From the NCBI GenBank assembly GCA_044892505.1, contig CM097884.1, forward strand, positions 135,284,001-135,348,000: a stretch of 64,000 nucleotides of DNA. The letters run 5' to 3'. Origin of the DNA: Schmidtea nova. Lineage: Eukaryota. The translations under genes were made by a program, and so were the position numbers. Below the pieces are notes generated by a model that saw only the letters and a list, made by a program, of their open reading frames with translations, was not told the origin of the DNA and did no database searches. This document shows, one piece after another, positions 27,529 through 45,381 of the stretch. Positions within the stretch are counted from its first letter, which is position 1, and each line of letters begins with the position of its first letter.

Positions 27529-28405
27529 CCAACGAGAGACGTCAGTTGAATTAAAGGTGAGTAGAGATGAGAATTGAAATGAAGTAGTAAACGTAGTGCG
27601 AATAGGAGATGAAGCGAATAGTTGGGAAATAGAGTAGTTGACAGATAAGGGGAGATTTGAACTCAGAGCCAGAGAAGCCTGAGAAAAGTAAAGGGGATAA
27701 TAAGAGCGCTGAGCGACAAAGTAATCGGGAAACTGGGGAAAAAGTAATTGGTGTATTTGATAAAGAATAGATAATTGATGCGACTGCATAGATAATTTAA
27801 ATAGACTTAAAATCAAGGGAAATGGGAAAAATGGGGATCTTCATGAATTATGACTACACCCGTGAGAGGGACGAGAAACACGATAACGGGGACGTATCGT
27901 GTAAGTGATTATTTGTTTTAAGGAAACAAATCAATCAAGCAATTCAAAGCAATCTAGCAGTCAGAGCAGTCAAAGGAAACAAAACGAAGAAGAAGCAAAG
28001 CAAAAGCGGAGTAGAAAATCAGTTGAGAATATAAGAAGTTGAGGAATAGACAAAATTGAGGGACGAGAAACAAGATCAGGTATAATACCAATCTTAACGG
28101 AAGCAGAAAGAAAAGCAGCAAAAAGGACAAGAACAGGTAACAAGCCTAAGCAGCAAAAGAACAAACAAGTAGAGATCAGCGATAATTCGAGTAATAAAGA
28201 GAACCAAGAAGAAACCCCAGAAGATCTAGAAGTACAAAACGAAGTAGAGACGATAGACAGTGAACTAGTCAGAGAAAACAGAACAAGAAGCGAATCAAGA
28301 GATAACGAAACAGAGAGTAGCAAAGAAGAAGAGTCGAATTCAGAAACAAGTGGTGAACTAGAAGTAAAGAAAACTAGTACAGTATTCCAAGATAGTGGAA
28401 TCGGG

Positions 28406-29551
28406 ATGAGTGATCACAGAGAGGATCTAAGAGAAAAATTCAAGGGCGAACCATTTAATGGAGACGCCAGTAGATTGGACACGTTTCTGAAGGAATTTGG
28501 CATATTCGTGGATATATGCGGATGGAGTGCAGAAACGTTAGCGAATCGAATCCCGCTATACTTGAAAGATAGCGCATTGGATCTGTATATTGAAAAGAGA
28601 TCTGGAAGTAATCCACCCAGAACGTGGGAAGCGATCAAGGAGTTCTTCCAACAGACGTTTGGGATAAACAAAGTGCTGAATGAAGCATTCGATGAGTTCT
28701 CAGCAAGAAAACAAAGGAGAAATGAGTCAAATGCGGTGTACGCAAGCGAATTAAGAAAGTTGGCGAAACTGGCATTCAACAGAGGAAGCCCAGTAGACGA
28801 AGAATTGATGACAGCGTTATTCGTACGAGGTCTCAGGAGACCTGACATCAGAGCACAAGTGGGATGCAAGGGATGTAAAACAGTAGATGAAGCGTTGGAA
28901 GCAGCCAACCTATTCGAATTGCATATGGCAATGAATGACATGAGAATTACGGCGGTAATGGGAAAAACGACAGAAGATGAAGAACAAGGAAAAAGAAACA
29001 TGAATCAGAGTATTCCCCATTCACAGAGATTGTTCAAAGAACCGCCAGCGAGGAAGAATAACGGATATATCACGGTGAACACGAATGGAGGAAATAGTTA
29101 CAATGACAGGCAGAATAGGCAATGTCAGACGTGTGGGAAAAACGGACATTGGCAACAAGAGTGTTTCCAGAATGTAGCCTGTAAACTGTGTGGACAAAAA
29201 GGTCACTCAGAAAATCGATGTTATGGGAAAACGTGTTACACATGTGGAAAAACCGGACACATGTCAAGAGACTGTAATCAACAGAGAAGTTGGTCAAACA
29301 GTGGAAATAGACCGAATTACGGGAATCGACCAAGCTATGGGAATCAAGGTCAACAACGGAACAACCCAAACAGCAGTGCAAACGAAGCTAGTATGAAAGA
29401 AGCTAAGTTGAGACAGGAGGTATCCAGATTACACGAGATAATCGAAAGCATGGCAAAGGGAAGCCAACAAGCTGCTCAACCAAAGATAAACATGATCCAG
29501 TTAATAGAAGCTGAGGCCGAAAGAGAAAACAGAGAGTCAACAGAAACATAA
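28406..29551 (+). CDS. gag: Gag (retrotransposon capsid domain plus three CCHC zinc knuckles)
   Basis: FNGD...LKDSAL..Y...W..IK..F..TFG capsid pattern; CQTCGKNGHWQQEC, CKLCGQKGHSENRC, CYTCGKTGHMSRDC. Confidence 0.93.
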   Translation: MSDHREDLREKFKGEPFNGDASRLDTFLKEFGIFVDICGWSAETLANRIPLYLKDSALDLYIEKRSGSNPPRTWEAIKEFFQQTFGINKVLNEAFDEFSARKQRRNESNAVYASELRKLAKLAFNRGSPVDEELMTALFVRGLRRPDIRAQVGCKGCKTVDEALEAANLFELHMAMNDMRITAVMGKTTEDEEQGKRNMNQSIPHSQRLFKEPPARKNNGYITVNTNGGNSYNDRQNRQCQTCGKNGHWQQECFQNVACKLCGQKGHSENRCYGKTCYTCGKTGHMSRDCNQQRSWSNSGNRPNYGNRPSYGNQGQQRNNPNSSANEASMKEAKLRQEVSRLHEIIESMAKGSQQAAQPKINMIQLIEAEAERENRESTET

Positions 29552-29639
29552 TCAAGAATGGGCTAGAGTACGACGAGAAGAAGAACAAGTCAGGCAACAA
29601 CGATTACAACAGTTAAAAAAGGGAAATCCAAGGATCAAC

Positions 29640-32600
29640 ATGATGCGAGCAATGATGGAAGAGAAGCAGCAGGATGAGTCAGACGAGTTAGAAGTTAAAG
29701 AGAAAAGAAACGAAGAGCAGAAACAAGAAGAAGTGAGTCAGGAAGTAGAAACTACAGAGCAGAATCAAAAAGTGGAAGAAGTAGAAAAAGAAACAGAAAC
29801 AGAAAAAGAAACAGGAAAAGAAACGAATCAAGAAGAGGGAGTGAGAATCAAACAAAGAGGAATGTTGGTGATCATGCCGAATGATCACGTATTTCGATTC
29901 AAATACGATGTAAAAGAAGAAGTAGGAAGATTGTTCAATAAAGTAAATGAGATGATTCCGGGAGTGACGAAACTGCCCAGAGAAGCATTCCTACAAACAG
30001 AGGATCTACCAGAAGTGAAGTTAAAGATGACTGATATATGGGAAGATATGGGAGTAACGGAGACGAAAATAAACGTGATGATCATCAGAGAGGTGGAACC
30101 GGAGAAAATCCCACCACCAGTGAAACATCAAACTCGGATCAGTCGAATATTCAAAGGAAAAATAAGACGAAGACGGTTGGAAGAAATAGAGGAGTTGGAG
30201 AAAAGAATGGGAAAAGCTGAAATAACGGGAAACGAGAATGAACTAATACAGGAAGTTAGCAAAAACGAAGCGAGACCAACCGCGCATATTGGGATGCTGA
30301 GACACCCAAGACAAGAGTTGTCAGATGAAGAAGATGACAGCGAAGTTAGCAGTCTGGCAGGAGACATGCTAAAGGAACCGGAAAACGAGGATAAAAAGAT
30401 GGAAGTAGTCGAGACGATAGAAATGATGTCAGTAAAGGAAGAGGAAATTCAGAAGCTGATGGATAACGCGTTGGAAGTAATCCATAACGAGGAGTTTATC
30501 GACGGGAAACGATATAGAAAGTTTATACGAGCAGTATGGCAGATGAAGTATAAAGAGTGGTTACAAGAAAGAGAAGTGAGGGTAATACAAGAATTCATAG
30601 AGAAGTTATTGAAAGAACCACTGAACGAATACGTAATACAAATATGGATAAACGAGTGTTCACCGAGAATCTGGATAAGGAACCCAATGACGGATGGAAT
30701 ATATCGATGGGTTGAGGACAGATTGGGAAGCTCGTACAAAGACAAGTTCATATACTCAGGAAACGGATTGGTGAGAAAAGGAACGCATATGATAGACACA
30801 GGCATATGGCCAGGAGAAATAACGACGTTATCAATATGCAACACCAAAAAGGAAGAGAACTTACAAGGAATCGTCAAAGAAGCGAATACGTGTTACGAGA
30901 TGAGAATAAAACCTCAGTTGGTAGAGGCAAAAGAAAGAATCTTGGCGGAGAATTTGAATACGATGATAGAACAGATCATCCAACAAATCAAGAAACATCG
31001 AAAGGAATTGACGAAAAACGAGTATGAGAATTTGAAACAGTGTATCGAGAACATACGAGATACAAGTCAAACGAGACATTCAAATTTCAAAACAGACAAG
31101 CTAATTGCAAAGATGGGAAAAGAAATGTTTAAAAGAGGAGAGGTATCAGACCTGAAGATTACCGTGAGATTGCCGAACGAGGAGACAAGACAAATTGAAG
31201 TAATACCAGATAGTAAAGTGGGAGAAATAGTAGAGGTCATCAATGAGACGATATTACAACGAGAACGAGAAGACGAATTCGAAGATGACATTGCGATAAA
31301 ATACAAAGAACATCTACTGAACGAACGTGACGAAAGACGAGCGTATAAAATCGGCATATGGGACAATTTCCAGACAATACACGTCATCAGAATGGATGAT
31401 GTGCCAAGAGCAACACCAAGAGATGAGGAAAGGAAAAAGAAACGACAAGAGGACGTTATGCGCAAGTTGAGGCAGATAGTAGAAATCTATCGGAACTGGC
31501 AGATGAAGCCAGAATGGGAGACAATATTGGGGGAATTGGATCTTAACCGACGACGATTGACGCCAGTAGAGAAGCAATGGGATAACAAAGAGAAACGTTG
31601 GAAAGTGAAAAGAGGCGTATATGAAGAAGATCCGGAGGGAGAAGACAGATACGAAACGAATACAAAACGGATATGTATGGTAACAAGGAGAATATTACCA
31701 ACGGACTTAGACGGACCAGAAACTGCAGTAATATGGGCAGAATTGGAGAAACAGAAAACGAGTGAATTGATCGAGCTGTTGAGAGGAAATACTCGGGGAA
31801 AAAGACAAACAAAAAAAGGCTTAGCACAATTCATAATCTCAAATGGAGAAGACATAACGAACTTGAGAAAAGTAGCTAAAGCGATAGCAGAATACAAGAG
31901 AGTTAACGAGTGGTGTCCAGAGCAACTAGACGAGGTAATAAAAAAGTGGAGAAACAAAGAGTTTACGGAGGAAACGCCACAGAAAATACATTTGAGGATA
32001 ATGTATCCGAATCAGAGAAAAGAAGAGTTTTGGGTGATGCTAACAGAAAAAGTGAAGAGTGTTAAAGAGAAGCTGATGTATGAACTACCATTCCACCTGC
32101 AACATCAAGGACGATCGTTGGATAACAATTTGGAAATCTGGCTGACACCAGTACAATTGGATCTAATGAATACGCTAACAGTGGCACAGATAGTGGGTCA
32201 ACCACTGAAGTTTAAAGAGGAAAAGAAAGCGAAAGGAAGCATGAGTACACCAAGTCCGATGAAGTCAACAACGACCCCAGGAACAAGTTCGGGACAAGCA
32301 AGGACAACACCAATCAAAACGAGAGAAAGAACACCGCCAGAAGCGTATGACGTCGATGAGATACTAACAGACAGTGACGAAGCGATAGAAGAATTAACGA
32401 AACTGACTCAAAAACCAACGGCGAACATTTTTGACAGAATAATAGAGATGCCAATAACGTCACCAGCAGAAATCGACGATCAAGGAGTGGAACAGGAGGT
32501 AGTCATAGAAATGGTAAACGATTCGGAAGACGAACAAGAACAACCACAGTTTACTCAAGAAATGGAAAGATGGTTAGAACAGCGAGCGAACGAAGGAAGA

Positions 32601-35600
32601 GATGTTACAGAAGAAACCGGAAGAGCAGCGAGATTTGTAGAAACCGGAACTGGAATGGAAAAACGACCAAGAGGGAGACCAAAGATAGATCTAGCAACAA
32701 CAATTCCAAAGACAAGAGAAGAAAGGAGACAAGAGCAATGGGAGATTTGCTTGAAGAAACTAGACAAAATCGCAGAAATCAGAGGAAAAGAGGAGAATCA
32801 AGTTTGTCAAGGAGAAGAATGGCTCACCAAAACGATAATGGATGTACTAGCAATAATTGACCCAGACTTAAAGAATTTGTGGCGAATAAACGAACCTAGT
32901 ACAAAGGCAAAAATGCTACACAATGCAATAGCACCGATTATGCCAGAATTGATAAAGGCAAAAACAAAATCGAATCATCTAGATTGGCAAGGAACCACGA
33001 TGTTGATAAAAGGGCTACTTAACGGAGCAGAGACGGATAGCAAATATCTAGTAGCAATCTCGTATACGATATACAATTTGTTAACGCTAAGCCGAGGGAG
33101 TCCGAAGTCAAGTCCGATGGGAAGACATATTAAAAATACGGCGATGATTATCGAGAAAGAAATTGAACCATATATCCTCAGAAAAGGAGGATGGGAGAAG
33201 TTCATAAAAGAGAACCAGACGAAAGAAGGCTCTAACGTGATGAGAAAGAAACTCGAAGGAGTATTGAGAGAAATGGAGAATAGACAAACGATGCAAGGAA
33301 ACGGAAGATCGACGTTGAATCTAAACTCGATAATCATGATGATGCTAGTATGGTTGTTAAGCACAGAAGGTGTAACAACGTTCGAAGTATTTGATTGTGA
33401 TCAAATGAAGTTAGGAGAAAAGTACTCATTGAGAGGTACGGAGCAATGCAAAGATGCAACTCCAGTAGAGTTAAAAGAGATTAAAAAAGAACAATGGTAC
33501 CACGTGTATCAAGAGGCAGAACTAATAAAGACAATGGTGAATGAATGCAAGGTACAGAAGACGAGATTCGCATTCTATTGTGGGAGAGGACATTATTCAG
33601 CAATTGTCATGCCAGGAACAGAAAGAGAACCAATCGTATTGCAAGGGGAAGACTGCGAAGCATTATTTAAACATGGAGAAGTAACAACGAGAGATAAAAT
33701 CAAGATAAAAGGAAAACCAGGAATGATGTTACAGCAGACATATTACGTAGCAGGACGAATTACGGGAGGAGAAGGATATTGTCAAGGAGAAACCTACCCA
33801 ATATTTGGAGTACCTGCAACCAACTTAGTGGTAATGGATACGTACATAGTCGAACTGAAAAGTTACGAAGCATTCTTCGAACCAACAACAGGAGAAATGA
33901 AAACGTTATCCATGTGTAAAATTGACAGGAGTATGTGTCAAACGGGAATGTCAACTTTGGTGTACAAACCGAAAGTGAACGAATGTCAATTACAACTGCT
34001 ACAAGGAGCAAAGTTCGACGAAATTCAAGGAAAAACGTTCCAAGAGGAGGACGATGACGACAAAGCTAGAGCAAAACATCTCAAAGAAGCTTTAGAAAAT
34101 AAAAGACAACTGAAATCAGAGCAGAGAGAGAAACGGATAGAGATGAGAACCACACCAACAGTGTTGATAACCACAAATCAGGATGTGGGCATGAGATTCA
34201 TAAAAGGGAAAGCAACCCTTAAGTGCAGTACAACAGTATACGAAACAAACTATCCAGGAATATATGTGTCAAAGCAAGAAGTACCGAATGCGAAACCCAA
34301 GATCGACACAATGGATATCAAGCTACACTTGTATGTGAATAATAAAATGGATTTCTTATTCCATAGAGGACAAGCCTCATTGCAAAAAGTGTACTATGAT
34401 CTGATAAACAACGATTGTATACTGAATCGAGAAATATTGAAGACAAAGTTGGCCGTAGCGATTACGAATCCAGATAGCGCGATGCCATTATTACCACTGA
34501 GAGAAGGACATTTCGGAAGAGTGGTCGGAGAAGCAATGTACGTATACATTTGCGAAAAGACACACGCATCGCTAGCAGCAACAACGCAGTTGAAACCTGG
34601 ACAATGTACAAACGAACTAGAAATCGATTATAAAGGAAAAGTACGATATGTTCAACCGGTGACGAGAATCATCAATCCACCAGGGTTTGAACCAAATCCA
34701 TTCAACTGTAGTAATGCGTACGGACCGCTTTATCAGAAGCCAGATGGCAAATGGGTTATGTTCCCAGGAAGAACCGAAGTATTAGCACCAAGAGAATTTG
34801 AACTGATGCAGTTGTCAAAAGATAGACAGTTCAGTGACGTAGATGTCTCAAACAACGGAATCTATAGTCCAAAGGATCTAGAAGCAGCAAGGCAGAATAT
34901 ACTATTTCCGGCAAGAAGAGAAGCATTACTGTCAAATATCGTAACGATAACGGGAGGAACGAATTATCGAGAAGGACCGAATTACGAACTGCTGTTGTCA
35001 CCGGCACATTTCAAGAAAGCCACAGAAAATATGATGAAGGCAATGTGGGGAAGATTCCTGATATTTGGACAAATGATGGCTGGAATACTGGGGGTTATAC
35101 TGATAATACAAATCGTCAGAGTGATAATAACGCAAATGTTAGCGTGTTTCGATATCTACAAGAGAGAAAAGAAAGTGAATTGGAAAATGGTAGTAGGGTT
35201 TTTACCATTCCTTGCGAAAACGATGGTGTTACACGGACACTCAAAAGACATACATCGAATAAAGAGGTTGTTGAAGATACTTGCAAAAATGAGAGGAACA
35301 AATGAAGATGTCGGAAGGAAATTCAAAAAGATAATGCAAGATGAACAAGCAAGACGACAACTGAAGAAGGAAAGGAAAGGATTATGGGAAAGAGTGAAGG
35401 GATATCGAACACAAGATGATTCAAGCAACGACGACGATGACGATGACGATCAAGGAGGACAAGCGAATATAAACCAGATTCCACAGTATAACGAAAAGAG
35501 TGCAGTTGAGAATTGGAGATACAGTGCTCCACCTCAGTCAATGTATAACGAACCGATATACAAAGCGAAGCCGAATATGATGCAGATGATGCCGATGACA

Positions 35601-38600
35601 AGTATATACCCGATAATTCCAGAAGACTGCAAAGTAAAACGAGGCGGAAGCGTAAACTCGTTAGAAGACACGCATACGATAGCGGTTATGTCCACAAATA
35701 TGGGACCGATTTTAACAACAACTGTAGAAATAAACGGAAGAGAAATTGAAGCTATGATCGATACAGGCGCGAATATTTCGGCGATCGACATTAATCATAT
35801 ACCAGAGAAAAATCAAGGAGAAATCGAGAAGACGAATGTTCATGTAATCGCGTGCAGTCAAGAGACAGTAGAAGTAGCCGGAAGATGGTTTGTAAAAATT
35901 AAGCATCGAGGTGCAGAAATCAACACGTACATCGCTGTAATACCATCGCTGAGTGTACCATGTATTATTGGAACTGACCTGATGCCAGACCTGTTCAAGG
36001 AAATCGTAATTGATCTAGGAGCAATGAAGCTGAAAGATAGAACAGGAAAAATCTGCAGAATGAAAGTTAAAGTGGCAAGTGCAGGACAAATAGTAGTGCC
36101 AGCGAGGCACGAAATGATGTGCTATGTCAAGATCGATTCGACAATAAAGGGAGACATGATATTCGAACCAAGTAAGAAGTTCGAAGCGAAGAAGGAATTA
36201 CAAATGGCAAGAGAATTGGTCACGATAAACCAAGAAGGAGAAATACCGATTAATCTGGTAAACTTCGACGAAGAGGACAAGATAATATACGAGAATGAGA
36301 ATTTGGGTAAATTAACACCCATGTCCGAAATCGAAATACCAGATAAGAATGAGAAAAGCAAAGACGAGTTACCATGGAAAATCGACAGTGTGTTGTTAGA
36401 CGAACGACAAAAAGAACAGTTACAGAAACTGTTGATGGAATATAAAGATATATTCGCAGCATCAGATTTAGATCTGGGAACATGTGATGTAACATTACAC
36501 ACGATACCGTTGACGGACGAAACGCCAATCGTATTACGACCATACAAACTGGCAGAAGCTCAAAAAGCAGTGGCAGAAGAAGAGGTACAAAAGATGTTAG
36601 ATGCAGAGGTCATCGAACCTAGTTGCTCACCCTGGCAATTCCCGGTGGTGATGGTGAAAAAGAAGGATGGAACTCAAAGATTCTGTATCGATTACAGACG
36701 ATTAAATGCCGTTACGAAAAGAGATACGTACCCACTGCCAGACATAAATGAAATGTTGTTGACGTTACAAGGAGCAGCCTATTTCACGTCACTGGATTTA
36801 AAGAGCGGATATTGGCAGATCAAAATGAAAGACGAGGATAAAGAGAAGACAGCATTTACAATCGGACGAGATCTGTACCAATTCAAGAAAATGCCGTTTG
36901 GGTTAACAAACGCGCCAGCATCATTCCAGAGATGCATGAATTTCGTAACACATGGCATAAAACAATGCATGGTGTATATCGACGATCTATTGATCTACTC
37001 CGCAACATTCGAAGACCACTTGCAAGACATCAGAAATGTGTTCGTGAAATTAAGGCAATGGAAGCTGAAATTGAAGCCGTCAAAGTGCGATTGGGCAAAA
37101 GATAAAGTGACATTCTTAGGTCACATTGTATCAGCAAAAGGAAAAGAACCAGATCCAAGAAATATCGAGAAAGTTAAAGAATGTCCACCACCCAAGACAG
37201 TAACTCAAATACAAGAATTTTTGGGATTGTGTGGATATTATCGAAAGTTTATCAAGGACTATGCAGGAATATCAAAGCCAATGCAAGAATTAGTAAGACA
37301 AGACGTGTCGTTTGTGTGGGGAGCAGAACAGCAAGCAGCATTTGAGACATTACGAGACAAGCTGATTACAGCGCCAATATTAGTCCATCCAGATTTTAAG
37401 AAGCCATTTCTGTTGGCAACAGACGCAAGTGGATACGCAGCAGGAGCAGTACTAGGCCAATTCGATGAAGAAGGCAAAGAGAGAGTAATTGGGTACTACA
37501 GTCGAACATTCAGGAAACATGAAAAGAATTACTCAGTCACGGAAAGAGAAGCCTATGCGATAATATTGGCAATCAAGCATTTCAAATACCTGTTGTGGGG
37601 TCATGAAATATATATCACGACGGATCATCAACCATTGGTATGGTTAGGTCAACATAAAGAATCATCAAGTAGATTGATGCGTTGGGCGATGCAGTTGCAA
37701 GAATACTCGCCATTCATAAAGTTTAAAGCAGGAAAAGCAAACGCAAACGCGGATTGCATGTCAAGGTTTACATTTCCGGAATTGGTGAACCTAAATGCTC
37801 TAAAAATATGTGCATTAATAGCGGAGGATCTGGATTTCAGCGAATTAAGGAAAGATCAACTCGAAGATGAGGAGTTGGGATTGATCAGCAAGTATCTGAA
37901 AGAAAGGGAAATGGAGATATTCGGCAAGAACCAAACGTTACGCGAACATATGCAGAAATATCAGCACCGATATGTGATGGAAAAAGGATGGTTATTGATA
38001 CAAGATGGAGAACGAAGATTAATGTGCTTACCTGCGAATAGGCGAAAGGAAATCATGACTCAATATCATGACGGAAAATTAGGCGGACATATGTCAGCGA
38101 AAAAGACAATCGGGAGATTGAGACAAAAGTATTTTTGGCCAACCATGGAAGATGATGTGAAAGAATGGATAAAGAACTGCTTAACCTGTGCGACAAGAAA
38201 GAACGTCGGAACAAAGTGGAAAACACCACTAAAACCAATGCCAATACCTGCAGAACCGATGGCAACGATAGCAATGGACGTAGTTGGACCATTGCCGGAA
38301 AGCTTAAAGGGGAATCAGTATATCTTAGTAGTTACGGACTATCTAACAAAGTTCCCAGAAGCATTCGCAATACCAGATCAAAAAGCAAAAACAGTCGCGA
38401 GAATATTGGTAGAAGAGATATGCTGCAGATACGGAACACCCAAGAAAATCCTAACGGACCAAGGAACGAACTTCATGAGTGAAATATTAGACGAAGTCAC
38501 GAATTACTTCCGAATTGCGAAATTACGAACATCCCCATACCATCCGCAAACGAACGGTCAAACAGAAAGGTTCAATGGAACATTGATACGCATGTTGTCA

Positions 38601-41600
38601 AATTACGTCAGTAAACATCAGACTGACTGGGACGAGTATATCAACTTGTGTTTAATGGCATATAGAATGTCAATACATGCGGCAACAAAGCTAAGTCCAT
38701 TTCAACTGATGTACGGAAGAGACTGCAACTTACCGATCGATTTAGAATACCAACCACCATTATCACAGTACATGGAGGTTGACGATTACGTGACGAAGTT
38801 CAAAGAAAGAATGCAAGAGATCTGGAAAACGGCGGAACTAAACATCAAGTTCTATCAAGAGAGTTACAAGGATCTGCATGACCAGAAAAAGAATGTGAAA
38901 GCACATGATTTAAAAGTTGGAGATTGGGTGATAATCGAAACACCAGAGATAATACCCGGTACGGTCAAGAAACTCCAACGACCAGGCAAAGGGCCATACG
39001 AAATAACAACAGTAAATGAAAACAATGTGCGAGTACGATTGGTGAACAATCCATTGGTAAGACCAATATACGTGAATGCATGTCGATGCAGGAAAATACC
39101 AAAGACAGCAACTCTATCACCAGAGAAACGGGTGATGACAAGATCACAGACGGCGAGAATTAGTATGTTACGAGTACAACAAAAGCCGCAAACAAGTCTA
39201 GAAGACAACCGAAGAGAAGTAATAGACATCAAAGAACTGGCAAAGAGGACCAGAGAAATTATACCAGAATGGAAATGGTGGTTCGATTTCAATATATTGA
39301 CAGAAGTTCGAAAGAATGTAATGGACTATGCTAAGGATAGAACAGCACATCCAATAACAAGGACGCTGCTAGAGGAGATCCCTCAGACATTGAATCTACA
39401 AGACAAAGATGGTAATACCGCGTTACATAATGCAATCAAGCACAGTGGAAACGAAAAAGTGAAAGAGATCGTGGAAATGATACTCGAAGGTGGAGGAGAA
39501 ATTGACAAAGTGAATTGGGAAGGAATCACTCCACTGATGATGATGACGATTCACGGAAGAAACGATGAAATAATCAAGCTATTCGGAAACACCAGATCGA
39601 ATTGGATGACAAAAGATAAAGAAGGGCGAACTTTCTTGAATCATGCAATTGATAGAGCAAATCACCGAATACTGAAGTATATCACGGAGAATGCCACGTG
39701 GGAAATCGACGAACTAACTAGAGGATCGATCATGAAACAAGCAATCGGGGTAAAGAACAGTAAAACCTGGAGGATATTGCTAAAATGGAAACGACCAGAA
39801 GGAGATTCGTGGATCATGGATTGTAATGAAGTGTTCATAAAGGGAGAAAATGCGCTACTGAAACATCTATTAGAAGTAACATACGATCCAAAAACACTTG
39901 CAGTGTTGATAGCGAGAGATACGCTACGGGTTAGTGAAAACCCAAGAGAATACAAGTTGGAAGACAGAAAGAAGGAACTATTCGGATTAATCAAGAAATG
40001 GTGCGATAAGCAATGGAATCCGGATATGAGCTTCGAACATTTCTATGACATCCAAAAGCAGCACAAAGAAATAAGCAAACGATATAAAGAGCTGGTGGAA
40101 GCATTGAAGTATGGACAATTCTTCAGACAAGCAGTGTATCAAGACCAACGAATGAAACAGATGCAAACGCGAATAAGAAGCAAAGCAGTGTTGTTCAATG
40201 CAAAAGCTGATTATCAAGAGAGATTAGACGCAATCGTAGCAAAAGCACAGGAGAAATTATCGGAATTCAAGGAGAATAAAAAATCGCTAGAAATACTAGG
40301 AGCAATTACAGAGAAAGTGCACAGATATGCACAAGGAGACTCTAACGAGAGTGACATGGAAACGATCAAAAATCAAATGCCTGTAGCATTCCTATTATCG
40401 AAGAATGGGAGATTGCCGATACATTGGGCATTACGTCGAAAGAAAGAAAACGAAGTGCTAGAAATAACGAAAGCAATGGTCAAGTGCGAAGCAGACATGA
40501 ATACGGTTGATGGTAATGGAGATACAATCATGATAATCGCAGCAAGGAAGAAGACGAAGTTGAAAGTGCTAAATGAATTATACGAAGCAGGAGCAAAAAT
40601 CGAAGGGAAAAATGGAAAGAATAATTCCATCATAGATATCGCAATACAGTGGAACAATTTCGAGATGATCAAGTTCATAAAGTCCATCAAGAGACAAGAG
40701 GACATAGAATACCTGGCAAATAACGTAAAGAATTTCAGTTTGACAGTAATGATACACGACATAGAGAAAACAAGAGCATTAATAACATGGGTGAATCCGA
40801 TCACCAAGGAACCGGCTTTCAAGATCAATGACCATATGGAACAGAATCAGAATTGGTGTATCAGAAGCGCGTTATTAAGACACAAAAAGCCAGAGATAGT
40901 AGAAGAATTCTTAAAGAGAAGAGATTTGAAGTTCACGAACAATCCAAAGGAACCCGAACGAACGGGAAGATGGAAAAACTTGTTCAGAAAATATGTGAAT
41001 GAATGGACAAATGCCAAAGGAGCAATCAAGCAAAGTAGACTAGAAGACAGGGAACCATCCAAGGAGATGGAAATACGTGAATTCGAGTCTAGCACACTCG
41101 CGGTTCAAACGTATGAAAGATTGATTGAAGAAATTAATGTCGAGGACGACATTTCGAAAGGACCAGGGGGTGGTTACAGAGATTTCGACGACAAAAGCAA
41201 CAACGAAGAGAACAACGAAGACAATGACAACAAAAGAACAGAGGATAATGAAAAAGAAAGACAAGAAGAACCGAAACCAACGAGAAACGACAAGAAAGGG
41301 GAAGCCGAAGAACGAGAAAACAGTGGAACAAAAGACGAACATGCGAACTATGGAAAACGAACAGGAAGTCTACTTTTGAGACCAGAAATGTTGTGTATTG
41401 CGATATTGATAACAATCATCGGACAAGGAGAAGCCAAGAAACAATACGTCACGCTAGAGATAATCAGAGGAAAGGAAGTATACGAAAGAATATGCTGGAA
41501 AGAAAACCTGAAGAAAAACGATACGCTGAAGTGTATATTGTCAGATCTAAAGCGAGACGTCATCCAAATCAAAGGATTGGAGAAAGAAAAGTCATACATA

Positions 41601-43313
41601 ATATGCGCAATAAAGCAGAGAGGAGAACCAAAAGCACCTCAGGTAACTGCATGTCAATTATATAAAGCAACAGAAGCGCTGAAAATACAGAAATGGATTG
41701 AGAAAAGAAGCGAAGAGACAACGAGAAGAACAGAAGTGGAATTGGAGAAAGGGAAGAATCAATCTGAAGCAGAAGAAGGAATCGGAAACCGAACGGAGAA
41801 AGAAAGAATAACCAAAAATTCAGCGGGAAAATTAACATTCCAACCGGAATTGATATGTGTAGCATTAATATTAATCCTCATTAAGAGAATCATGGAGGAC
41901 ATAGATATTAGCGTAATGACGTTAGTAAATATCCAAGACCAACGAACAACGAACGGAAGATGTTGGGGACGAAACAATGAGGTAATTGGAATCAGCGAAA
42001 CAAGAGAAAGTCGAGAGACAGAGACAAATGAGGAAATCGAGATAACCGAAATGGAAACAGAGAAAACATGTGAACTATGCCTCATGGAAAAAGCAGCAAA
42101 CGGAAACAGACCAGGAACAAGCGAGTGTAAAGTGTTCCAAGCAAAGGAGATAATTGAGTTCCCAAAAAGAAAGAAACAAGATCAAGAAACGATTGCGAAT
42201 GAAGTAGTAACAGTGGAGATAAAAAACATTGGTCGGAGAACAATTGGGATGTGTTGGAGAAAATACATCGGAGTACCGACCAACAACATAATACCGCAAT
42301 GCAGAACGAGAGAACGAGGAATCCCGTTTCAACTAAATGGATTCGAAGTCGGACAAACCTACGAAATTTGCGTAATTCGAAGAATAAGAGAAATAATACT
42401 AAGAAGCCTGGAGTGCAAACTGTACAAGACGCCAGAGCAAATTAACGGAACAAGAACGATCGAAATGGGAGGAAGTCGACAGAGGAAAAGAAAGTCAAGA
42501 AGAACCACGACAACAAACAGTCAAGGAGTTCAACAGGCAACAACGGAAAGAACGACAATAGAAAACGAACCGGAATCAACAACGCTGATAATATGGAAGA
42601 TCCATAAAAAGGTCCTAGAAATCTGTTGGACACTAATGCCGAACAGTATGGGAAAGTCCCCACGAAACTGTCAAAAGACATCAAATGATAAAGGAGAAAT
42701 AATCGAGGTAGAAATGAGGAAGTTGAAAACAAACGCAGAGTACGAAGTGTGTGCAATCGAAGAAGTAGATGCACAAGGAAATCCACAAGAAAGGTGCGAA
42801 ACCTATTACACGCCAAGGAACACGACGATAAAGAGGAGAATCAAAAAGTTAGAATTCCGAGAATTGAGTCAGAAGAGAGAACAAAACGAGAAGGAAGAAA
42901 CAATACCAAATCAACAAGAAAGATGGGAACCAGAGAAAGTGATTGAAGAAGTTAGACGGAGACAACAACAATATGAACAATGGGAAGCAGAATGGAAAGG
43001 TCAATATGGCGTGATGATAAACCAAAGTGAGACTCCAAGAATGAGCATTGGAAAAACAGTAATGGGATTAATCAGCATGGGAGTATTCATAGCGTGTATA
43101 CCGCTGATAACGATCATGATAGTATGTTGGAGATATGGCATGAGAAATAAGACCATAGCAGTAAAATGGCCGGACGTAAAGGTCACGAACTACAACATAA
43201 AACTACCAAAAGAAGTACGAGAAGAGCTGAAAAGACGATCGAAACACGAAGAGATGTGGGTACAGATCGAAGACGAGGAACTGTACGAAGGAAAACCAGT
43301 GATAGTCGTATAG
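29640..43313 (+). CDS. pol: 4,557-aa polyprotein: accessory domains, glycoprotein, PR, RT, RNase H, IN, ankyrins, FN3-like membrane domain
   Basis: Uninterrupted 13.7-kb ORF (frame open from 29508); DTGA 35760, YIDD 36975, TDAS RNase H, HHCC plus DDE integrase, GPY motif. Confidence 0.96.
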   Translation: MMRAMMEEKQQDESDELEVKEKRNEEQKQEEVSQEVETTEQNQKVEEVEKETETEKETGKETNQEEGVRIKQRGMLVIMPNDHVFRFKYDVKEEVGRLFNKVNEMIPGVTKLPREAFLQTEDLPEVKLKMTDIWEDMGVTETKINVMIIREVEPEKIPPPVKHQTRISRIFKGKIRRRRLEEIEELEKRMGKAEITGNENELIQEVSKNEARPTAHIGMLRHPRQELSDEEDDSEVSSLAGDMLKEPENEDKKMEVVETIEMMSVKEEEIQKLMDNALEVIHNEEFIDGKRYRKFIRAVWQMKYKEWLQEREVRVIQEFIEKLLKEPLNEYVIQIWINECSPRIWIRNPMTDGIYRWVEDRLGSSYKDKFIYSGNGLVRKGTHMIDTGIWPGEITTLSICNTKKEENLQGIVKEANTCYEMRIKPQLVEAKERILAENLNTMIEQIIQQIKKHRKELTKNEYENLKQCIENIRDTSQTRHSNFKTDKLIAKMGKEMFKRGEVSDLKITVRLPNEETRQIEVIPDSKVGEIVEVINETILQREREDEFEDDIAIKYKEHLLNERDERRAYKIGIWDNFQTIHVIRMDDVPRATPRDEERKKKRQEDVMRKLRQIVEIYRNWQMKPEWETILGELDLNRRRLTPVEKQWDNKEKRWKVKRGVYEEDPEGEDRYETNTKRICMVTRRILPTDLDGPETAVIWAELEKQKTSELIELLRGNTRGKRQTKKGLAQFIISNGEDITNLRKVAKAIAEYKRVNEWCPEQLDEVIKKWRNKEFTEETPQKIHLRIMYPNQRKEEFWVMLTEKVKSVKEKLMYELPFHLQHQGRSLDNNLEIWLTPVQLDLMNTLTVAQIVGQPLKFKEEKKAKGSMSTPSPMKSTTTPGTSSGQARTTPIKTRERTPPEAYDVDEILTDSDEAIEELTKLTQKPTANIFDRIIEMPITSPAEIDDQGVEQEVVIEMVNDSEDEQEQPQFTQEMERWLEQRANEGRDVTEETGRAARFVETGTGMEKRPRGRPKIDLATTIPKTREERRQEQWEICLKKLDKIAEIRGKEENQVCQGEEWLTKTIMDVLAIIDPDLKNLWRINEPSTKAKMLHNAIAPIMPELIKAKTKSNHLDWQGTTMLIKGLLNGAETDSKYLVAISYTIYNLLTLSRGSPKSSPMGRHIKNTAMIIEKEIEPYILRKGGWEKFIKENQTKEGSNVMRKKLEGVLREMENRQTMQGNGRSTLNLNSIIMMMLVWLLSTEGVTTFEVFDCDQMKLGEKYSLRGTEQCKDATPVELKEIKKEQWYHVYQEAELIKTMVNECKVQKTRFAFYCGRGHYSAIVMPGTEREPIVLQGEDCEALFKHGEVTTRDKIKIKGKPGMMLQQTYYVAGRITGGEGYCQGETYPIFGVPATNLVVMDTYIVELKSYEAFFEPTTGEMKTLSMCKIDRSMCQTGMSTLVYKPKVNECQLQLLQGAKFDEIQGKTFQEEDDDDKARAKHLKEALENKRQLKSEQREKRIEMRTTPTVLITTNQDVGMRFIKGKATLKCSTTVYETNYPGIYVSKQEVPNAKPKIDTMDIKLHLYVNNKMDFLFHRGQASLQKVYYDLINNDCILNREILKTKLAVAITNPDSAMPLLPLREGHFGRVVGEAMYVYICEKTHASLAATTQLKPGQCTNELEIDYKGKVRYVQPVTRIINPPGFEPNPFNCSNAYGPLYQKPDGKWVMFPGRTEVLAPREFELMQLSKDRQFSDVDVSNNGIYSPKDLEAARQNILFPARREALLSNIVTITGGTNYREGPNYELLLSPAHFKKATENMMKAMWGRFLIFGQMMAGILGVILIIQIVRVIITQMLACFDIYKREKKVNWKMVVGFLPFLAKTMVLHGHSKDIHRIKRLLKILAKMRGTNEDVGRKFKKIMQDEQARRQLKKERKGLWERVKGYRTQDDSSNDDDDDDDQGGQANINQIPQYNEKSAVENWRYSAPPQSMYNEPIYKAKPNMMQMMPMTSIYPIIPEDCKVKRGGSVNSLEDTHTIAVMSTNMGPILTTTVEINGREIEAMIDTGANISAIDINHIPEKNQGEIEKTNVHVIACSQETVEVAGRWFVKIKHRGAEINTYIAVIPSLSVPCIIGTDLMPDLFKEIVIDLGAMKLKDRTGKICRMKVKVASAGQIVVPARHEMMCYVKIDSTIKGDMIFEPSKKFEAKKELQMARELVTINQEGEIPINLVNFDEEDKIIYENENLGKLTPMSEIEIPDKNEKSKDELPWKIDSVLLDERQKEQLQKLLMEYKDIFAASDLDLGTCDVTLHTIPLTDETPIVLRPYKLAEAQKAVAEEEVQKMLDAEVIEPSCSPWQFPVVMVKKKDGTQRFCIDYRRLNAVTKRDTYPLPDINEMLLTLQGAAYFTSLDLKSGYWQIKMKDEDKEKTAFTIGRDLYQFKKMPFGLTNAPASFQRCMNFVTHGIKQCMVYIDDLLIYSATFEDHLQDIRNVFVKLRQWKLKLKPSKCDWAKDKVTFLGHIVSAKGKEPDPRNIEKVKECPPPKTVTQIQEFLGLCGYYRKFIKDYAGISKPMQELVRQDVSFVWGAEQQAAFETLRDKLITAPILVHPDFKKPFLLATDASGYAAGAVLGQFDEEGKERVIGYYSRTFRKHEKNYSVTEREAYAIILAIKHFKYLLWGHEIYITTDHQPLVWLGQHKESSSRLMRWAMQLQEYSPFIKFKAGKANANADCMSRFTFPELVNLNALKICALIAEDLDFSELRKDQLEDEELGLISKYLKEREMEIFGKNQTLREHMQKYQHRYVMEKGWLLIQDGERRLMCLPANRRKEIMTQYHDGKLGGHMSAKKTIGRLRQKYFWPTMEDDVKEWIKNCLTCATRKNVGTKWKTPLKPMPIPAEPMATIAMDVVGPLPESLKGNQYILVVTDYLTKFPEAFAIPDQKAKTVARILVEEICCRYGTPKKILTDQGTNFMSEILDEVTNYFRIAKLRTSPYHPQTNGQTERFNGTLIRMLSNYVSKHQTDWDEYINLCLMAYRMSIHAATKLSPFQLMYGRDCNLPIDLEYQPPLSQYMEVDDYVTKFKERMQEIWKTAELNIKFYQESYKDLHDQKKNVKAHDLKVGDWVIIETPEIIPGTVKKLQRPGKGPYEITTVNENNVRVRLVNNPLVRPIYVNACRCRKIPKTATLSPEKRVMTRSQTARISMLRVQQKPQTSLEDNRREVIDIKELAKRTREIIPEWKWWFDFNILTEVRKNVMDYAKDRTAHPITRTLLEEIPQTLNLQDKDGNTALHNAIKHSGNEKVKEIVEMILEGGGEIDKVNWEGITPLMMMTIHGRNDEIIKLFGNTRSNWMTKDKEGRTFLNHAIDRANHRILKYITENATWEIDELTRGSIMKQAIGVKNSKTWRILLKWKRPEGDSWIMDCNEVFIKGENALLKHLLEVTYDPKTLAVLIARDTLRVSENPREYKLEDRKKELFGLIKKWCDKQWNPDMSFEHFYDIQKQHKEISKRYKELVEALKYGQFFRQAVYQDQRMKQMQTRIRSKAVLFNAKADYQERLDAIVAKAQEKLSEFKENKKSLEILGAITEKVHRYAQGDSNESDMETIKNQMPVAFLLSKNGRLPIHWALRRKKENEVLEITKAMVKCEADMNTVDGNGDTIMIIAARKKTKLKVLNELYEAGAKIEGKNGKNNSIIDIAIQWNNFEMIKFIKSIKRQEDIEYLANNVKNFSLTVMIHDIEKTRALITWVNPITKEPAFKINDHMEQNQNWCIRSALLRHKKPEIVEEFLKRRDLKFTNNPKEPERTGRWKNLFRKYVNEWTNAKGAIKQSRLEDREPSKEMEIREFESSTLAVQTYERLIEEINVEDDISKGPGGGYRDFDDKSNNEENNEDNDNKRTEDNEKERQEEPKPTRNDKKGEAEERENSGTKDEHANYGKRTGSLLLRPEMLCIAILITIIGQGEAKKQYVTLEIIRGKEVYERICWKENLKKNDTLKCILSDLKRDVIQIKGLEKEKSYIICAIKQRGEPKAPQVTACQLYKATEALKIQKWIEKRSEETTRRTEVELEKGKNQSEAEEGIGNRTEKERITKNSAGKLTFQPELICVALILILIKRIMEDIDISVMTLVNIQDQRTTNGRCWGRNNEVIGISETRESRETETNEEIEITEMETEKTCELCLMEKAANGNRPGTSECKVFQAKEIIEFPKRKKQDQETIANEVVTVEIKNIGRRTIGMCWRKYIGVPTNNIIPQCRTRERGIPFQLNGFEVGQTYEICVIRRIREIILRSLECKLYKTPEQINGTRTIEMGGSRQRKRKSRRTTTTNSQGVQQATTERTTIENEPESTTLIIWKIHKKVLEICWTLMPNSMGKSPRNCQKTSNDKGEIIEVEMRKLKTNAEYEVCAIEEVDAQGNPQERCETYYTPRNTTIKRRIKKLEFRELSQKREQNEKEETIPNQQERWEPEKVIEEVRRRQQQYEQWEAEWKGQYGVMINQSETPRMSIGKTVMGLISMGVFIACIPLITIMIVCWRYGMRNKTIAVKWPDVKVTNYNIKLPKEVREELKRRSKHEEMWVQIEDEELYEGKPVIVV
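32738..33215 (+). other. Bcl-2-like domain within the polyprotein
   Basis: IEKEIEPYILRKGGWEKFI resembles BH2 (Bcl-xL LNDHLEPWIQENGGWDTFV); weaker BH3-like LKKLDKIAE and BH1-like ELI...LDWQGT in the expected order. Confidence 0.55.
33321..35250 (+). other. Chuvirus-like fusion glycoprotein domain
   Basis: Signal-like SIIMMMLVWLLSTEG; FDC...YSL...EQC, ECKV...R...YCG..H, YVNNK, NDCILNR, FGRVVGEAMYVYIC Cys pattern; C-terminal TM GILGVILIIQIVRVII. Confidence 0.8.
35700..36030 (+). other. Aspartic protease domain
   Basis: INGREIEAMIDTGANISAI ... CIIGTDLM. Confidence 0.9.
36550..37790 (+). other. Ty3/Gypsy-type reverse transcriptase plus RNase H
   Basis: SPW..PVVMVKKKDG..RFCIDYRRLN, LDLKSGYWQI, MPFGLTNAPASFQR, YIDD; LATDAS...ERE...TDHQPL...NADCMSR. 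Confidence 0.95.
38040..39080 (+). other. Integrase
   Basis: YHDGKLGGH...CLTC; AMDVVG, TDQGTNF, TERFNGTL; C-terminal GPY module. Confidence 0.95.
39390..40690 (+). other. Two ankyrin-repeat clusters (~39390-39700 and ~40400-40690)
   Basis: NLQDKDGNTALHNAI, NWEGITPLM, KDKEGRTFLNHAI; KNGRLPIHWAL, ADMNTVDGNGDTIMIIA, GAKIEGKNGKNNSIIDIA. Confidence 0.8.
41382..43313 (+). other. C-terminal membrane module: hydrophobic leader(s), four FN3-like Cys-containing repeats, TM, short tail
   Basis: Four repeats of [xCW ... I/L..L....Y.(I/V)C ... C..(Y/F)]; TM GLISMGVFIACIPLITIMIVCW at ~43060-43135. Confidence 0.55.
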
Positions 43314-43435
43314 AGGGTGGAATATGAGTGTAAATAGTAGTGTAAAAACCAATGCATAACCGTATACGTATGGGTATAAATATTATAAAACATAAAAACA
43401 GAAAAAGAGAATGATGTATATAATCTAGAAAAACG

Positions 43436-43786
43436 ATGAATCAAGGAACCACAGAGATGTCGATGATGACAAGATGGAAAGTACAATGTGACCTGCTAGC
43501 CAGAACAGTAAATGAATTACAGAGCCAGTTGACGGCAAAAACGCAATTATTAACCGAGAGTTATAACTGTAATTTCGAAGCAATGAACAAAATCGAGATT
43601 CAACAACTACAGATAAACGAATTACAGAACGAGAACCGAACATTGAATGAAGTGAACAACTGGCAAGCAGAAGAAATTGACAGATTAACGAGACATGAAG
43701 AGGAAGAGATACCAGATAGTTGGACGAGCTGGATTGTAAATGAGATAGACGTGTATCCAGAGCCAGATTCAACTGAGGATGTATAG
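43436..43786 (+). CDS. Small coiled-coil protein with acidic tail (116 aa)
   Basis: Co-oriented ORF with the element's A-rich codon style; heptad-like Q/L/E-rich segment. Confidence 0.6.
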   Translation: MNQGTTEMSMMTRWKVQCDLLARTVNELQSQLTAKTQLLTESYNCNFEAMNKIEIQQLQINELQNENRTLNEVNNWQAEEIDRLTRHEEEEIPDSWTSWIVNEIDVYPEPDSTEDV

Positions 43787-43876
43787 TGAATAAGCGGAAA
43801 ATTGTGTAAATACGTGTAAATAAAGAACCAGAAAAAATCAAAAATATGGGGCAATTGATGTAAATATTGTTGTAGA

Positions 43877-45289
43877 ATGAGAGCAGAAAGCGAAGCGGAT
43901 TACCAAACGATCGAGATTCTAAGAAGAGAAAATCGACAGTGGGGAGTAAATGTGACGTGTGTAAAGTGTAAAAATCTACTGTTAAAACCGAGGCAAACGG
44001 AATGTGGATGCAGGATGTGCACCAAATGTATATTGCAAATAATCAGTGAAAGTGAGACAAGAAAGTGTCCAGAGTGTGATGATAAACTACTGATCAACGA
44101 GACGAAACCAGACAAAGCAATACAAAAGGAGATCTGGAAGATAAAAACAGAGTGTATAAACCAACCATGTGAATGGAAAGGACCAATAATTGAGTTAAGA
44201 CAACATCTGGAGAAATGCGAAAACAAGAAAGCGATATGTGAAAAGTGTCAACAGACGATAACCATCAAGCAGTCGAAAAATCACAAAGATGAGTGCAAAG
44301 CAGAGATAATAGAGTGTCAATACTGCGAACAAAGAGAGACAAGAGAGATAATCGAAACAGAACATCTCAACGTAGCAGAAGAGAAAGTGTGTGGAAAATT
44401 CAGAGGAATTTGTCCAAGTAATTGTGGAACCGGAGAAGAAGTGATGTTGAGAGAACATTGGGAACAATGCGAATCAAGACCAAGAAAGTGCGTATGGAGT
44501 AAACAAGGATGTCTAGTAAAGAAAACGAGCAAAGAAATGAAAGAACATTTAGAAACAGAGACGGTACAACACGCAGAGATGCTAACAGAAAATTTAAACG
44601 GAATGGAACAAACCATACAGAAGCTGGGAAAAGAAATCGAATCTCAGAGGATAATGACGGAGTTATTACTAGAAACAAGAGAGCAATTCGAGGTCACCAG
44701 AGAGAAAATGATGGAGAAAATCAAAGTCATAGAGACGCTAGTAAGAGAAGTAAATGTACGACACCAAATGTGGGTGCGAGATGCAGAGGATATCGAGAAT
44801 TTACCTGTCGCACCATACGTATGGAAAATCAAGAACTTCAACGAAAAGTTCGCAGCAGCAAAAGCAGGAAGTCAAGTGTCGGTAACAAGTCCACCATTCT
44901 ATCTGTGGAAAAACGGATACAAAGTCCGGATGAGAATTTACCCAAATGGAGATGGATCAGGAAAGGAAACGCATGTGTCATTATTCTTTGCGTTGGGTAA
45001 AGGTGGTTACGACGACATATTAGAATGGCCACTAGAAACAAAGGCTATAATGAGAGTGAGAAACTCGAAAGAAACAATAGCGAGAGTATTCAAAATTGAT
45101 GGTAAGCACGAAGCTTACAAAAGACCAACCACAGAATGTTCATTAGCGACTGGAGAACCAAAATTCATACCACACCAAACAATGTGGGAGATGTTGTACG
45201 ACGACAACTTATATGTGGAGTTGGAGATCGAAAAGAAAACAAGTACAACAGTGATGAACACAAAGTCAACGAAAGGATGGTTAGAGTAG
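43877..45289 (+). CDS. Intronless TRAF-family protein (RING, TRAF zinc fingers, coiled coil, MATH; 470 aa)
   Basis: CVKC...PRQTECGCRMCTKC...CPEC; C...CEWKG...HLEKC; YVWKIKNF...SPPFY...GYK..MRIYPNGDGSGKETHVSLFF...YDDILEWP. Confidence 0.93.
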   Translation: MRAESEADYQTIEILRRENRQWGVNVTCVKCKNLLLKPRQTECGCRMCTKCILQIISESETRKCPECDDKLLINETKPDKAIQKEIWKIKTECINQPCEWKGPIIELRQHLEKCENKKAICEKCQQTITIKQSKNHKDECKAEIIECQYCEQRETREIIETEHLNVAEEKVCGKFRGICPSNCGTGEEVMLREHWEQCESRPRKCVWSKQGCLVKKTSKEMKEHLETETVQHAEMLTENLNGMEQTIQKLGKEIESQRIMTELLLETREQFEVTREKMMEKIKVIETLVREVNVRHQMWVRDAEDIENLPVAPYVWKIKNFNEKFAAAKAGSQVSVTSPPFYLWKNGYKVRMRIYPNGDGSGKETHVSLFFALGKGGYDDILEWPLETKAIMRVRNSKETIARVFKIDGKHEAYKRPTTECSLATGEPKFIPHQTMWEMLYDDNLYVELEIEKKTSTTVMNTKSTKGWLE

Positions 45290-45381
45290 TCAGAAGGAAC
45301 GACCCTGTAAATAAAGTGTAAAAAAAATCGACAACAACAATAAACGTATAGTATAACAAGTGTAAATTTGTAAATTACAGA

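Follow-up and report, generated by a model that had tools for sequence, protein, structure and literature searches.

The 64-kb window analysed here, meaning the whole stretch of 64,000 nucleotides (nt) from Schmidtea nova, contains one long terminal repeat (LTR) retroelement at 21141-50624 (29,484 nt), and this element probably encodes a single polyprotein of ~5,090 amino acids (aa) that is predicted to cross the endoplasmic reticulum (ER) membrane four times. Its order is Gag, a Bcl-2-like domain, an internal signal peptide (signal 1), the envelope glycoprotein (Env), a transmembrane (TM) helix, protease, reverse transcriptase, RNase H and integrase (PR-RT-RH-IN), ankyrins, a second internal signal peptide (signal 2), four FN3-like repeats, a TM helix and a tail. 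At the level of sequence, the analysis shows the boundaries of the element, the domain order, the presence of one frame in many copies, the position and conservation of the hydrophobic segments, the FN3-type fold and purifying selection.

A Kyte-Doolittle (KD) scan recovered, at the places given for them, all five hydrophobic segments listed in a preliminary description of this DNA. The hydrophobic cores (h-cores), scored as 11-mers, lie at 33330-33362 (2.60), 41388-41420 (3.24) and 41850-41882 (3.79, the most hydrophobic 11-mer of the whole protein), and two longer stretches, scored as 19-mers, at 35064-35132 (2.55) and 43056-43130 (2.65). With thresholds (2.6 and 1.8) chosen after inspecting the data, the five are the only segments with 11-mers above 2.6 in the 4,601-aa long frame (shuffle mean 0.89; five reached in 1 of 300 shuffles), and four 19-mers exceed 1.8 (shuffle mean 0.65; four reached in 0 of 300). 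Plain TM-helix length is found only at 35064 and 43056, with unweighted 19-residue Hessa sums of 0.1 and -1.5; the segments at 33330, 41388 and 41850 are 11-residue cores of signal-peptide size, with sums of 2.9, 3.7 and 5.4. An additional weak 19-mer (1.55) at nt 35928 lies within the protease domain. The flanking charge fits a cytosolic N-terminal side for both signals and a cytosolic C-terminal side for both TM helices. Moreover, signals 1 and 2 both look cleavable when judged by hand-coded features (a basic n-region, an h-region of 7-15 residues and small residues at (-3,-1)), with candidate (-3,-1) sites after signal 1 in 5/5 and after signal 2 in 8/8 tested proteins.

The same description had started the protein at 29640 and missed both gag and the Bcl-2-like domain, and here it has to be corrected. 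We scored 77 copies with the Env region in the same genome (from 3,634 candidates; 98-100% identical), and 24 of them carry an open frame of 5,076-5,091 aa. Gag and the long frame together have this length, which places the start of the natural product at gag. In the window copy the frame is broken between gag and the rest, within the overlap at 29508-29551. The first half of the membrane part of the protein reads as follows.

32895-33236, + strand: Bcl-2-like domain (BH2-like GGWxxF) directly before signal 1; a weak, indirect assignment
33303-33371, + strand: signal 1, predicted internal signal peptide; h-core 33330-33362, predicted cut between STEG and VTT, charge +1 before and -4 after
33372-35042, + strand: predicted luminal Env ectodomain of the Monjiviricetes fusion family, herpes-gB-like (class III); 14 cysteines and one furin-like REKR
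35064-35132, + strand: Env TM helix (predicted stop-transfer), followed by basic residues
35175-35231, + strand: conserved amphipathic stretch after the Env TM helix, not predicted to span the membrane

Signal 1 was placed by comparison with free viral glycoproteins. An Env-to-protease query was run against 1.84 billion representatives, and the best 150 of 925 matches, together with four full-length relatives, gave 154 sequences, 120 of which (Env region >450 aa) were aligned with the window protein in 121 rows, the first cysteine being aligned in 102. Where this cysteine lies within 100 aa of the N-terminus, as in free glycoproteins of ~650 aa, a hydrophobic core, their ordinary signal peptide, is present upstream in 68 of 84 rows. 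Where it lies more than 100 aa away, that is, in the polyproteins, the window protein included, an 11-residue h-region (KD>=2) is found upstream at an equal distance in all 18 of 18, and among control windows from the predicted cytosolic parts 1 of 72 scored as high. Since the internal core occupies the signal position of the free G proteins in 18/18, signal 1 appears to be a viral signal peptide kept in place. This match in position is the strongest result of the analysis.

It also bears on a reading with the same topology in which the signals are uncleaved anchors, and Env and the FN3 protein are separated from Gag/Bcl-2-like and ankyrin only by the element's own protease or an enzyme of the furin type. 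Foamy-virus Env keeps a long leader that signal peptidase leaves uncleaved, and the Env studied here has its furin-like REKR. Moreover, in some of the elements treated in the consulted sections of Chary & Hayashi 2026 (PMC13524379), the gB-type Env ectodomain lies between two predicted TM segments. However, the h-cores of 11-14 residues are short for anchors, small-residue cut sites stand behind 13/13 of those tested, and the distance from the core to the first Env cysteine equals that in free viral G proteins with cleaved signals, all of which makes uncleaved anchors highly improbable.

Upstream of signal 1, the region 32895-33236 has no Pfam match of its own, and the Bcl-2-like label comes from its alignment (25% identity, pairwise E 9e-5) with a sister-family region that matches Pfam Bcl-2 (E 2.6e-5). 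Env itself matches PF24664 at E 8.7e-68, with invariant cysteines in a 40-row alignment; the profile built from these rows hit herpesvirus gB in 38/38 PDB matches, the best at E 0.0011 over a single 75-position stretch. A second Env TM helix at 35175 was considered and rejected: the stretch is weaker than the TM helix in 18/18 polyproteins (median unweighted Hessa sums 7.6 vs 1.1) and in 93/102 other rows, and basic residues flank it on both sides. The point matters because a second crossing would place the protease in the lumen, whereas a single-crossing Env leaves Pol in the cytosol.

Beyond the ankyrins, a second membrane protein is predicted, made up of the following parts.

41358-41435, + strand: signal 2, predicted internal signal peptide; h-core 41388-41420, predicted cut between QGEA and KKQ
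41442-41684, + strand: FN3-like repeat 1
41820-41888, + strand: duplicate of signal 2; h-core 41850-41882, without a (-3,-1) site, conserved among copies
41886-42146, + strand: FN3-like repeat 2, the most degenerate
42192-42440, + strand: FN3-like repeat 3, modelled
42570-42830, + strand: FN3-like repeat 4
43056-43130, + strand: C-terminal TM helix, followed by basic residues (charge +1/+3)
43131-43313, + strand: predicted cytosolic tail of 60 aa, with the stop codon

The four repeats are 21-24% identical and share three invariant cysteines (a CW, a C and a C). With 20 repeat units as input, repeat 3 was modelled as a beta sandwich (pLDDT 76.7), for which Foldseek returned FN3 and monobody chains (best E 0.037) and the VIA top 50 were FN3-bearing entries at Z 6.5-7.8, below the caution line of Z 8, with a root-mean-square deviation of ~3 A over ~74 aa; feature-search matches to FN3 at 0.82-0.85 serve as leads only. 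On this modelling the repeats have the FN3-type beta-sandwich fold, and the FN3-like domain of the preliminary description resolves into four repeats. Pfam fn3 matched none of the four, the repeat profile gave a single PDB match at E 6.3 in one search and none in another, and a search of proteins of 361-1,150 aa with the C-terminal 657 aa as query found no homologue at E<=1. A single-sequence AlphaFold model of the whole C-terminal region (pLDDT 37.8) was set aside.

The layout of this second protein recurs in related elements. Eight distant relatives with an integrase were scanned; one stops right after the integrase, and the other 7/7 have a signal-like core beyond it, with a terminal TM helix and a short tail in 5/7 of these informative relatives. 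Run against the last 700 aa of seven distant relatives, the repeat profile gave no match; what is conserved is the architecture, and FN3 cargo is not shown for them. Signal 2 and the TM helix are also common to three sister families in the same genome (3, 2 and 2 copies examined), with frames of up to ~3,440, ~3,390 and ~3,070 aa; the first two are 72% alike, and the ~3,070-aa family has a single FN3-like repeat, which matches the repeat profile of the window element. Sequons are enriched in the second ectodomains of six proteins, with 30 in 2,013 aa compared with 53 in 8,466 aa for Pol (p=0.0004).

Two further observations concern these relatives. The sister Gag-Env-Pol families of this genome, at least three in number (L021-L030), have the Bcl-2-like domain before signal 1, lack ankyrins and carry extra downstream open reading frames (ORFs). 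Some distant relatives (P0003-P0006, P0038-P0041, P0051) have two to three aspartic-protease-like domains, some of them after the integrase.

The segment at 41850 requires separate treatment. Signal 2 plus repeat 1 aligns in register with the 41850 segment plus repeat 2 (score 95; best of 2,000 shuffles 61), a tandem duplication having carried the signal along with the repeat. No (-3,-1) cleavage site was found in the 7 positions scanned after the core, the flanking charge (+2/-1) has a signal-like orientation, and no equivalent was found in the seven informative distant relatives. One could nevertheless read the protein as crossing the membrane five times, with repeat 1 luminal, the 41850 segment as stop-transfer, repeats 2-4 cytosolic, the last TM helix inverted and the tail luminal. 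The segment is after all the protein's most hydrophobic 11-mer and is conserved, and repeat 1 with its linker is rich in sequons (3 vs 0.6 expected), an excess not seen in repeats 2-4 (3 vs 3.2). Yet the core is 11 residues between E and KR with a 19-residue sum of 5.4, the charges keep the orientation of a signal and not of a stop-transfer, basic residues follow the last TM helix, the cysteine pattern is kept in repeats 3 and 4 at 21-24% identity, and in the relatives the entire ectodomain lies between a single signal and a single TM helix; five crossings are therefore very unlikely.

Given four crossings, there is a good chance that the 41850 segment stays in the lumen without entering the membrane or serves as an alternative, uncleaved signal when signal 2 is skipped. 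A like-oriented segment left out of the membrane is known behaviour in 'frustrated' topologies, and a mixed output would explain the conservation of the segment. The ambiguity about the FN3 repeats that the preliminary description attached to this stretch is narrowed, the segment being a duplicate of signal 2 that the relatives lack, and not removed.

Membrane modules could also be made separately, from spliced (cis or spliced-leader trans) or internally initiated mRNAs, with Gag-Pol translated from an env-less RNA, and such products could exist alongside the polyprotein. Each signal would then work as a normal N-terminal signal peptide, and on this reading taken by itself the complete long frame would at no time be threaded. 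In errantiviruses and retroviruses Env is usually a spliced product, and flatworms trans-splice. Signals 1 and 2 contain Met, and a weak acceptor (tttgag) lies 7 nt upstream of the Met of signal 2. Moreover, the LTR holds the element's strongest acceptor-like site (22650/48851), 4 nt before the ATG of the first LTR ORF, so the element probably splices.

Against separate expression, all full-length lineages seen keep an open frame across both signals, and separate modules would need no open frame, least of all from integrase and ankyrins to signal 2. Among the best 45 of 296 acceptor-like sites no strong acceptor precedes signal 1, signal 2 or the duplicate; internal candidates upstream of PR and of signal 2 are kept in 19/21 (35537), 16/21 (35622) and 19/21 (41380) copies, and so are missing from 2-5 of 21, and there is none at 41850. 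Furthermore, 4/13 tested signals have no Met in the 49 aa upstream of the core, the core itself aside, and several have none nearby. Separate expression in place of the polyprotein is thus unlikely. Four contig runs gave cover in 30/30 bins, and 0/15 of the joints shown (of 101) were GT..AG, which is uninformative on splicing. The conserved start of the 41850 segment was also considered as a splice acceptor and rejected, as there is no AG there.

The single polyprotein with four crossings, which we prefer, would also need cytosolic processing. The motif [RKHNT]I[NSGTAC][AMVQ][IMLV] was counted 11 times among the 3,895 residues predicted to be cytosolic (shuffle mean 1.0) and 0 times among 1,092 luminal ones, a zero that is uninformative with 0.3 expected. 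The matches, which are candidate cleavage sites of the element's protease, include positions between capsid and nucleocapsid, after the nucleocapsid, ~100 aa past the Env TM helix, just before PR, and at the RH/IN and IN/ankyrin junctions. This motif was drawn from its own instances, and one match sits inside the PR active-site motif and is spurious.

These reservations about the motif weigh against the preferred reading, as do several other points. The (-3,-1) rule is permissive and was applied without a chance control, and the ends of the h-regions were placed by eye. Met lies in or near several signals, which is compatible with separate initiation. The Env ectodomain has one sequon where composition predicts 2.7, and repeats 2-4 carry 3 where 3.2 are expected, the excess being confined to repeat 1 and its linker. 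Signal 2 is weak (KD 2.1-2.4) in two sister families; among the distant relatives P0038 lacks a terminal TM helix at the threshold, P0047 is ambiguous, and the set is not independent (P0006 and P0038 are close). The 41850 segment varies at 2/24 sites among 21 copies, although a passenger need not be conserved, and the 100 listed of its 137 pattern matches, from a search biased to close matches, differ only synonymously. Finally, particle assembly does not easily accommodate equimolar Gag, Env and Pol, which a single ORF would yield.

With four crossings retained as the preferred reading, we infer membrane insertion, signal peptidase cleavage, cuts at the protease sites, a fate for the 41850 segment and a Pol tied to Env rather than to Gag, in the following course. 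Gag through the Bcl-2-like domain would be synthesised in the cytosol. Signal 1 would then engage the signal recognition particle and Sec61, and a signal peptidase cut behind it would leave the gB-type Env ectodomain in the lumen and the Gag/Bcl-2-like part with signal 1 as a C-terminal anchor. The Env TM helix would halt transfer, so that PR-RT-RH-IN-ankyrin stays cytosolic as the tail of Env. Signal 2 would restart translocation and be cut in its turn, yielding a second type I protein of four disulphide-bonded FN3-like repeats, a stalk, a TM helix and a 60-aa tail, while the 41850 duplicate would pass into the lumen or act as an uncleaved anchor if signal 2 is skipped. Signal peptidase would make two cuts in all, and the element's protease would trim the cytosolic parts at the repeated motif. 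Pol would then be anchored at both ends, joined to Env and no longer to Gag. The layout of the preliminary description (cytosolic N-terminal region, luminal Env, cytosolic PR-RT-IN-ankyrin, luminal FN3, TM helix and tail) is supported as a prediction by the homology of signal 1, the single Env TM helix, the recurrence of signal 2 with a TM helix, the sequon enrichment and the confinement of the motif to the cytosolic parts.

The remaining features of the element are these.

21141-24423, + strand: 5' LTR of 3,283 nt, TG...CA, with the AGAT target-site duplication just upstream
24430-24447, + strand: sequence resembling a primer-binding site (PBS), directly after the 5' LTR
28043-29551, + strand: gag ORF, with Retrotrans_gag and three CCHC knuckles, overlapping the long frame
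29508-43313, + strand: long open frame of 4,601 aa, the rest of the polyprotein
35718-35990, + strand: aspartic protease (DTGA), Pfam, motif intact
36654-37706, + strand: reverse transcriptase (YIDD) and RNase H, Pfam, motif intact
38031-39035, + strand: integrase (HHCC, core, GPY motif), Pfam, motif intact
39381-40682, + strand: ankyrin-repeat region in two clusters, Pfam
43859-45289, + strand: accessory TRAF-like ORF (RING, zf-TRAF, MATH), Pfam
47342-50624, + strand: 3' LTR, with the AGAT target-site duplication just downstream

The two LTRs, of 3,283 nt each, are 99.97% identical and are bounded on both sides by the 4-nt target-site duplication (TSD) AGAT, and the flanks of the element are AT-rich. 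The PBS-like sequence at 24430-24447 resembles a tRNA-Pro PBS; no tRNA genes were found in the 64-kb window. Along the long frame Pfam gives, in series, Monjiviricetes_fusion, aspartic protease, RT, RNase H, integrase and ankyrins. The order PR-RT-RH-IN, the GPY motif, the TG..CA LTRs, the 4-nt TSD and the PBS are features of Ty3/Gypsy (Metaviridae). The traits of Burro elements are present as well: size, multi-kb LTRs, a Gag-first single ORF with CCHC knuckles, in-frame env, ankyrins and MATH/TRAF. Judged by sequence features, the element is a Burro-type giant Gypsy, matched to Burro by published description and not by a reference Burro sequence. No Pfam match to BIR, SUMO/ubiquitin-like or dUTPase-like motifs was found in the element's proteins; three stretches of ~80 aa at 29850-32220 (+ strand) look ubiquitin-like by eye and have no Pfam match. 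Sequence searches against the PDB likewise gave nothing useful for the Bcl-2-like, ubiquitin-like and dUTPase-like parts.

Purifying selection is seen throughout, with a ratio of nonsynonymous to synonymous diversity (piN/piS) of 0.01-0.28 in all 21 regions among 21 copies, the sample being 20 copies from the top of the list, mostly with long open frames, plus the window copy. Positive selection on the C-terminal region was not supported (piN/piS 0.07-0.28 there). Synonymous divergence of the copies L001-L020 from window 33300-43310 is ~10-20%, despite the near-identical LTRs of the window copy, and several sub-lineages of the element have been active recently. Older LTR-like relics at 16160-19240 and 6828-7081 are 70-76% identical to the element's LTR; a search of the genome for intact members of the 16160-19240 family gave only matches of 81-91%.

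Between the polyprotein and the 3' LTR (43424-47140, + strand) lie four accessory ORFs, among them one of 120 aa, the TRAF-like ORF and a coiled-coil-like one of 396 aa. The fourth (46610-47140, 176 aa) combines a strong TM segment with a hydrophobic stretch at its N-terminus that is only weak, and is possibly a third small membrane protein. A RING-finger ORF (24970-25440, + strand; zf-C3HC4_3, E 5e-9) stands between PBS and gag, and the LTRs hold ORFs of 218 aa (22634-23290) and 206 aa (23419-24039), repeated at 48835-50240, without Pfam matches. The long 5' leader contains tandem arrays at 26150-26740 and 27040-27540 (14 x 19-bp unit, 36/54-bp units and ~86-bp repeats). Outside the element, a 28-bp satellite (35 copies) and a 263-bp tandem repeat occur at 61595-62575 and 53652-54350.

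Retroviruses and LTR elements package Pol through its fusion to Gag, a link that an Env inserted and cut out in between would break at birth. The element would then need another way to package its enzymes, and the topology points to the tail of Env. We tentatively propose, as an idea with rather less than an even chance of being right, that in this Gag-Env-Pol Gypsy lineage Gag and Pol are separated by signal peptidase during translation, that the leftover signal keeps Gag, together with its Bcl-2-like domain, at the membrane, and that Pol enters as the tail of Env, anchored at both ends until the protease acts. The other type I protein, which would be replaced rapidly (FN3 repeats in this element, different folds in its relatives), would be an attachment protein or an immune or receptor decoy beside the class III fusogen. 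If so, the leftover signal 1 would also supply the normal tail anchor of the Bcl-2-like domain, and the assembly logic of the enveloped particle would be one so far undescribed for reverse-transcribing elements. The architecture of the second membrane protein is conserved across lineages ~36-44% identical in Pol and is absent from the prior annotations examined. Burro elements are abundant, young repeats of a main group of regeneration models, and the predicted topology bears on the question whether they are viruses capable of passing from cell to cell.

Among known systems, flaviviruses, rubella virus and alphaviruses likewise thread the product of a single ORF through the ER membrane, with signal peptidase acting on the luminal side and a viral protease on the cytosolic side. 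The likeness is one of processing mechanism only: those viruses have an RNA-dependent RNA polymerase and class II fusogens, and share no homology with the window element. The label 'flavivirus-style' in the preliminary description is apt as a processing analogy and not as membership of the Flaviviridae, since Pfam shows retroelement domains only. According to the consulted sections of PMC3040668, the rubella capsid, which has an anti-apoptotic role, stays anchored in the membrane by the E2 signal peptide that it retains, much as proposed here for Gag/Bcl-2-like and signal 1. Closer in kind are the Atlas belpaoviruses, which in the consulted sections of Merchant et al. 2022 (PMC9094657) have a single Gag-Pol-Env polyprotein with internal TM helices, cleavage sites and two glycoproteins. 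Atlas, however, is BEL/Pao with a class II fusogen and both glycoproteins C-terminal, so that Pol remains attached to Gag and does not lie between membrane crossings. Anakin, a BEL/Pao element with a chuvirus-like glycoprotein (PMC7642597), shares the Env family PF24664 and has Env after Pol. The consulted sections of PMC12440569 and PMC11410931 contain nothing on topology.

The nearest relatives are Gypsy elements. The window element resembles Burro in its ~30 kb, Gag-first long ORF, Bcl-2-like domain, in-frame env, PR-RT-RH-IN, ankyrins and MATH/TRAF. Burro, or GYPSM1, giant Gypsy elements of planarians were reportedly described by Grohme et al. in 2018. Section 7 of Arkhipova & Yushenova 2019 (PMC6431247) gives Burro ~30 kb, long LTRs and a Gag-first ORF of ~5,000 aa, with a Bcl-2-like domain, then env in frame between gag and pol, ankyrins and MATH/TRAF. 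In contrast to that description, MATH/TRAF is a separate downstream ORF in the window element and no BIR was found there; TRAF is also reported as a separate ORF, there upstream, in the D. tigrina element. Signal peptides, TM segments, topology and a C-terminal FN3/TM protein do not come up in the Burro text of PMC6431247, figures aside.

GAG-ENV-POL errantiviruses with an HSV/gB-type Env occur, according to the consulted sections of PMC13524379, in nematodes, bryozoans and flatworms, and share with the window element a gB-type Env before Pol and an ectodomain between a signal or TM segment and a TM segment. Its supplement includes six S. mediterranea elements whose Env entries resemble the window Env, a likeness judged by eye only. 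The main text has no 'Burro', 'fibronectin' or 'single ORF', and the text examined describes no post-integrase membrane protein or processing model. In the literature covered, nothing was found that describes the second membrane protein, a protein with four crossings or what this would mean for packaging; figures, Repbase, subscription papers and most supplements lay outside the scope and may already carry TM or FN3 annotation. Burro elements and in-frame gag-env-pol are already published, and what seems new here is the second membrane protein and the reading of the topology.

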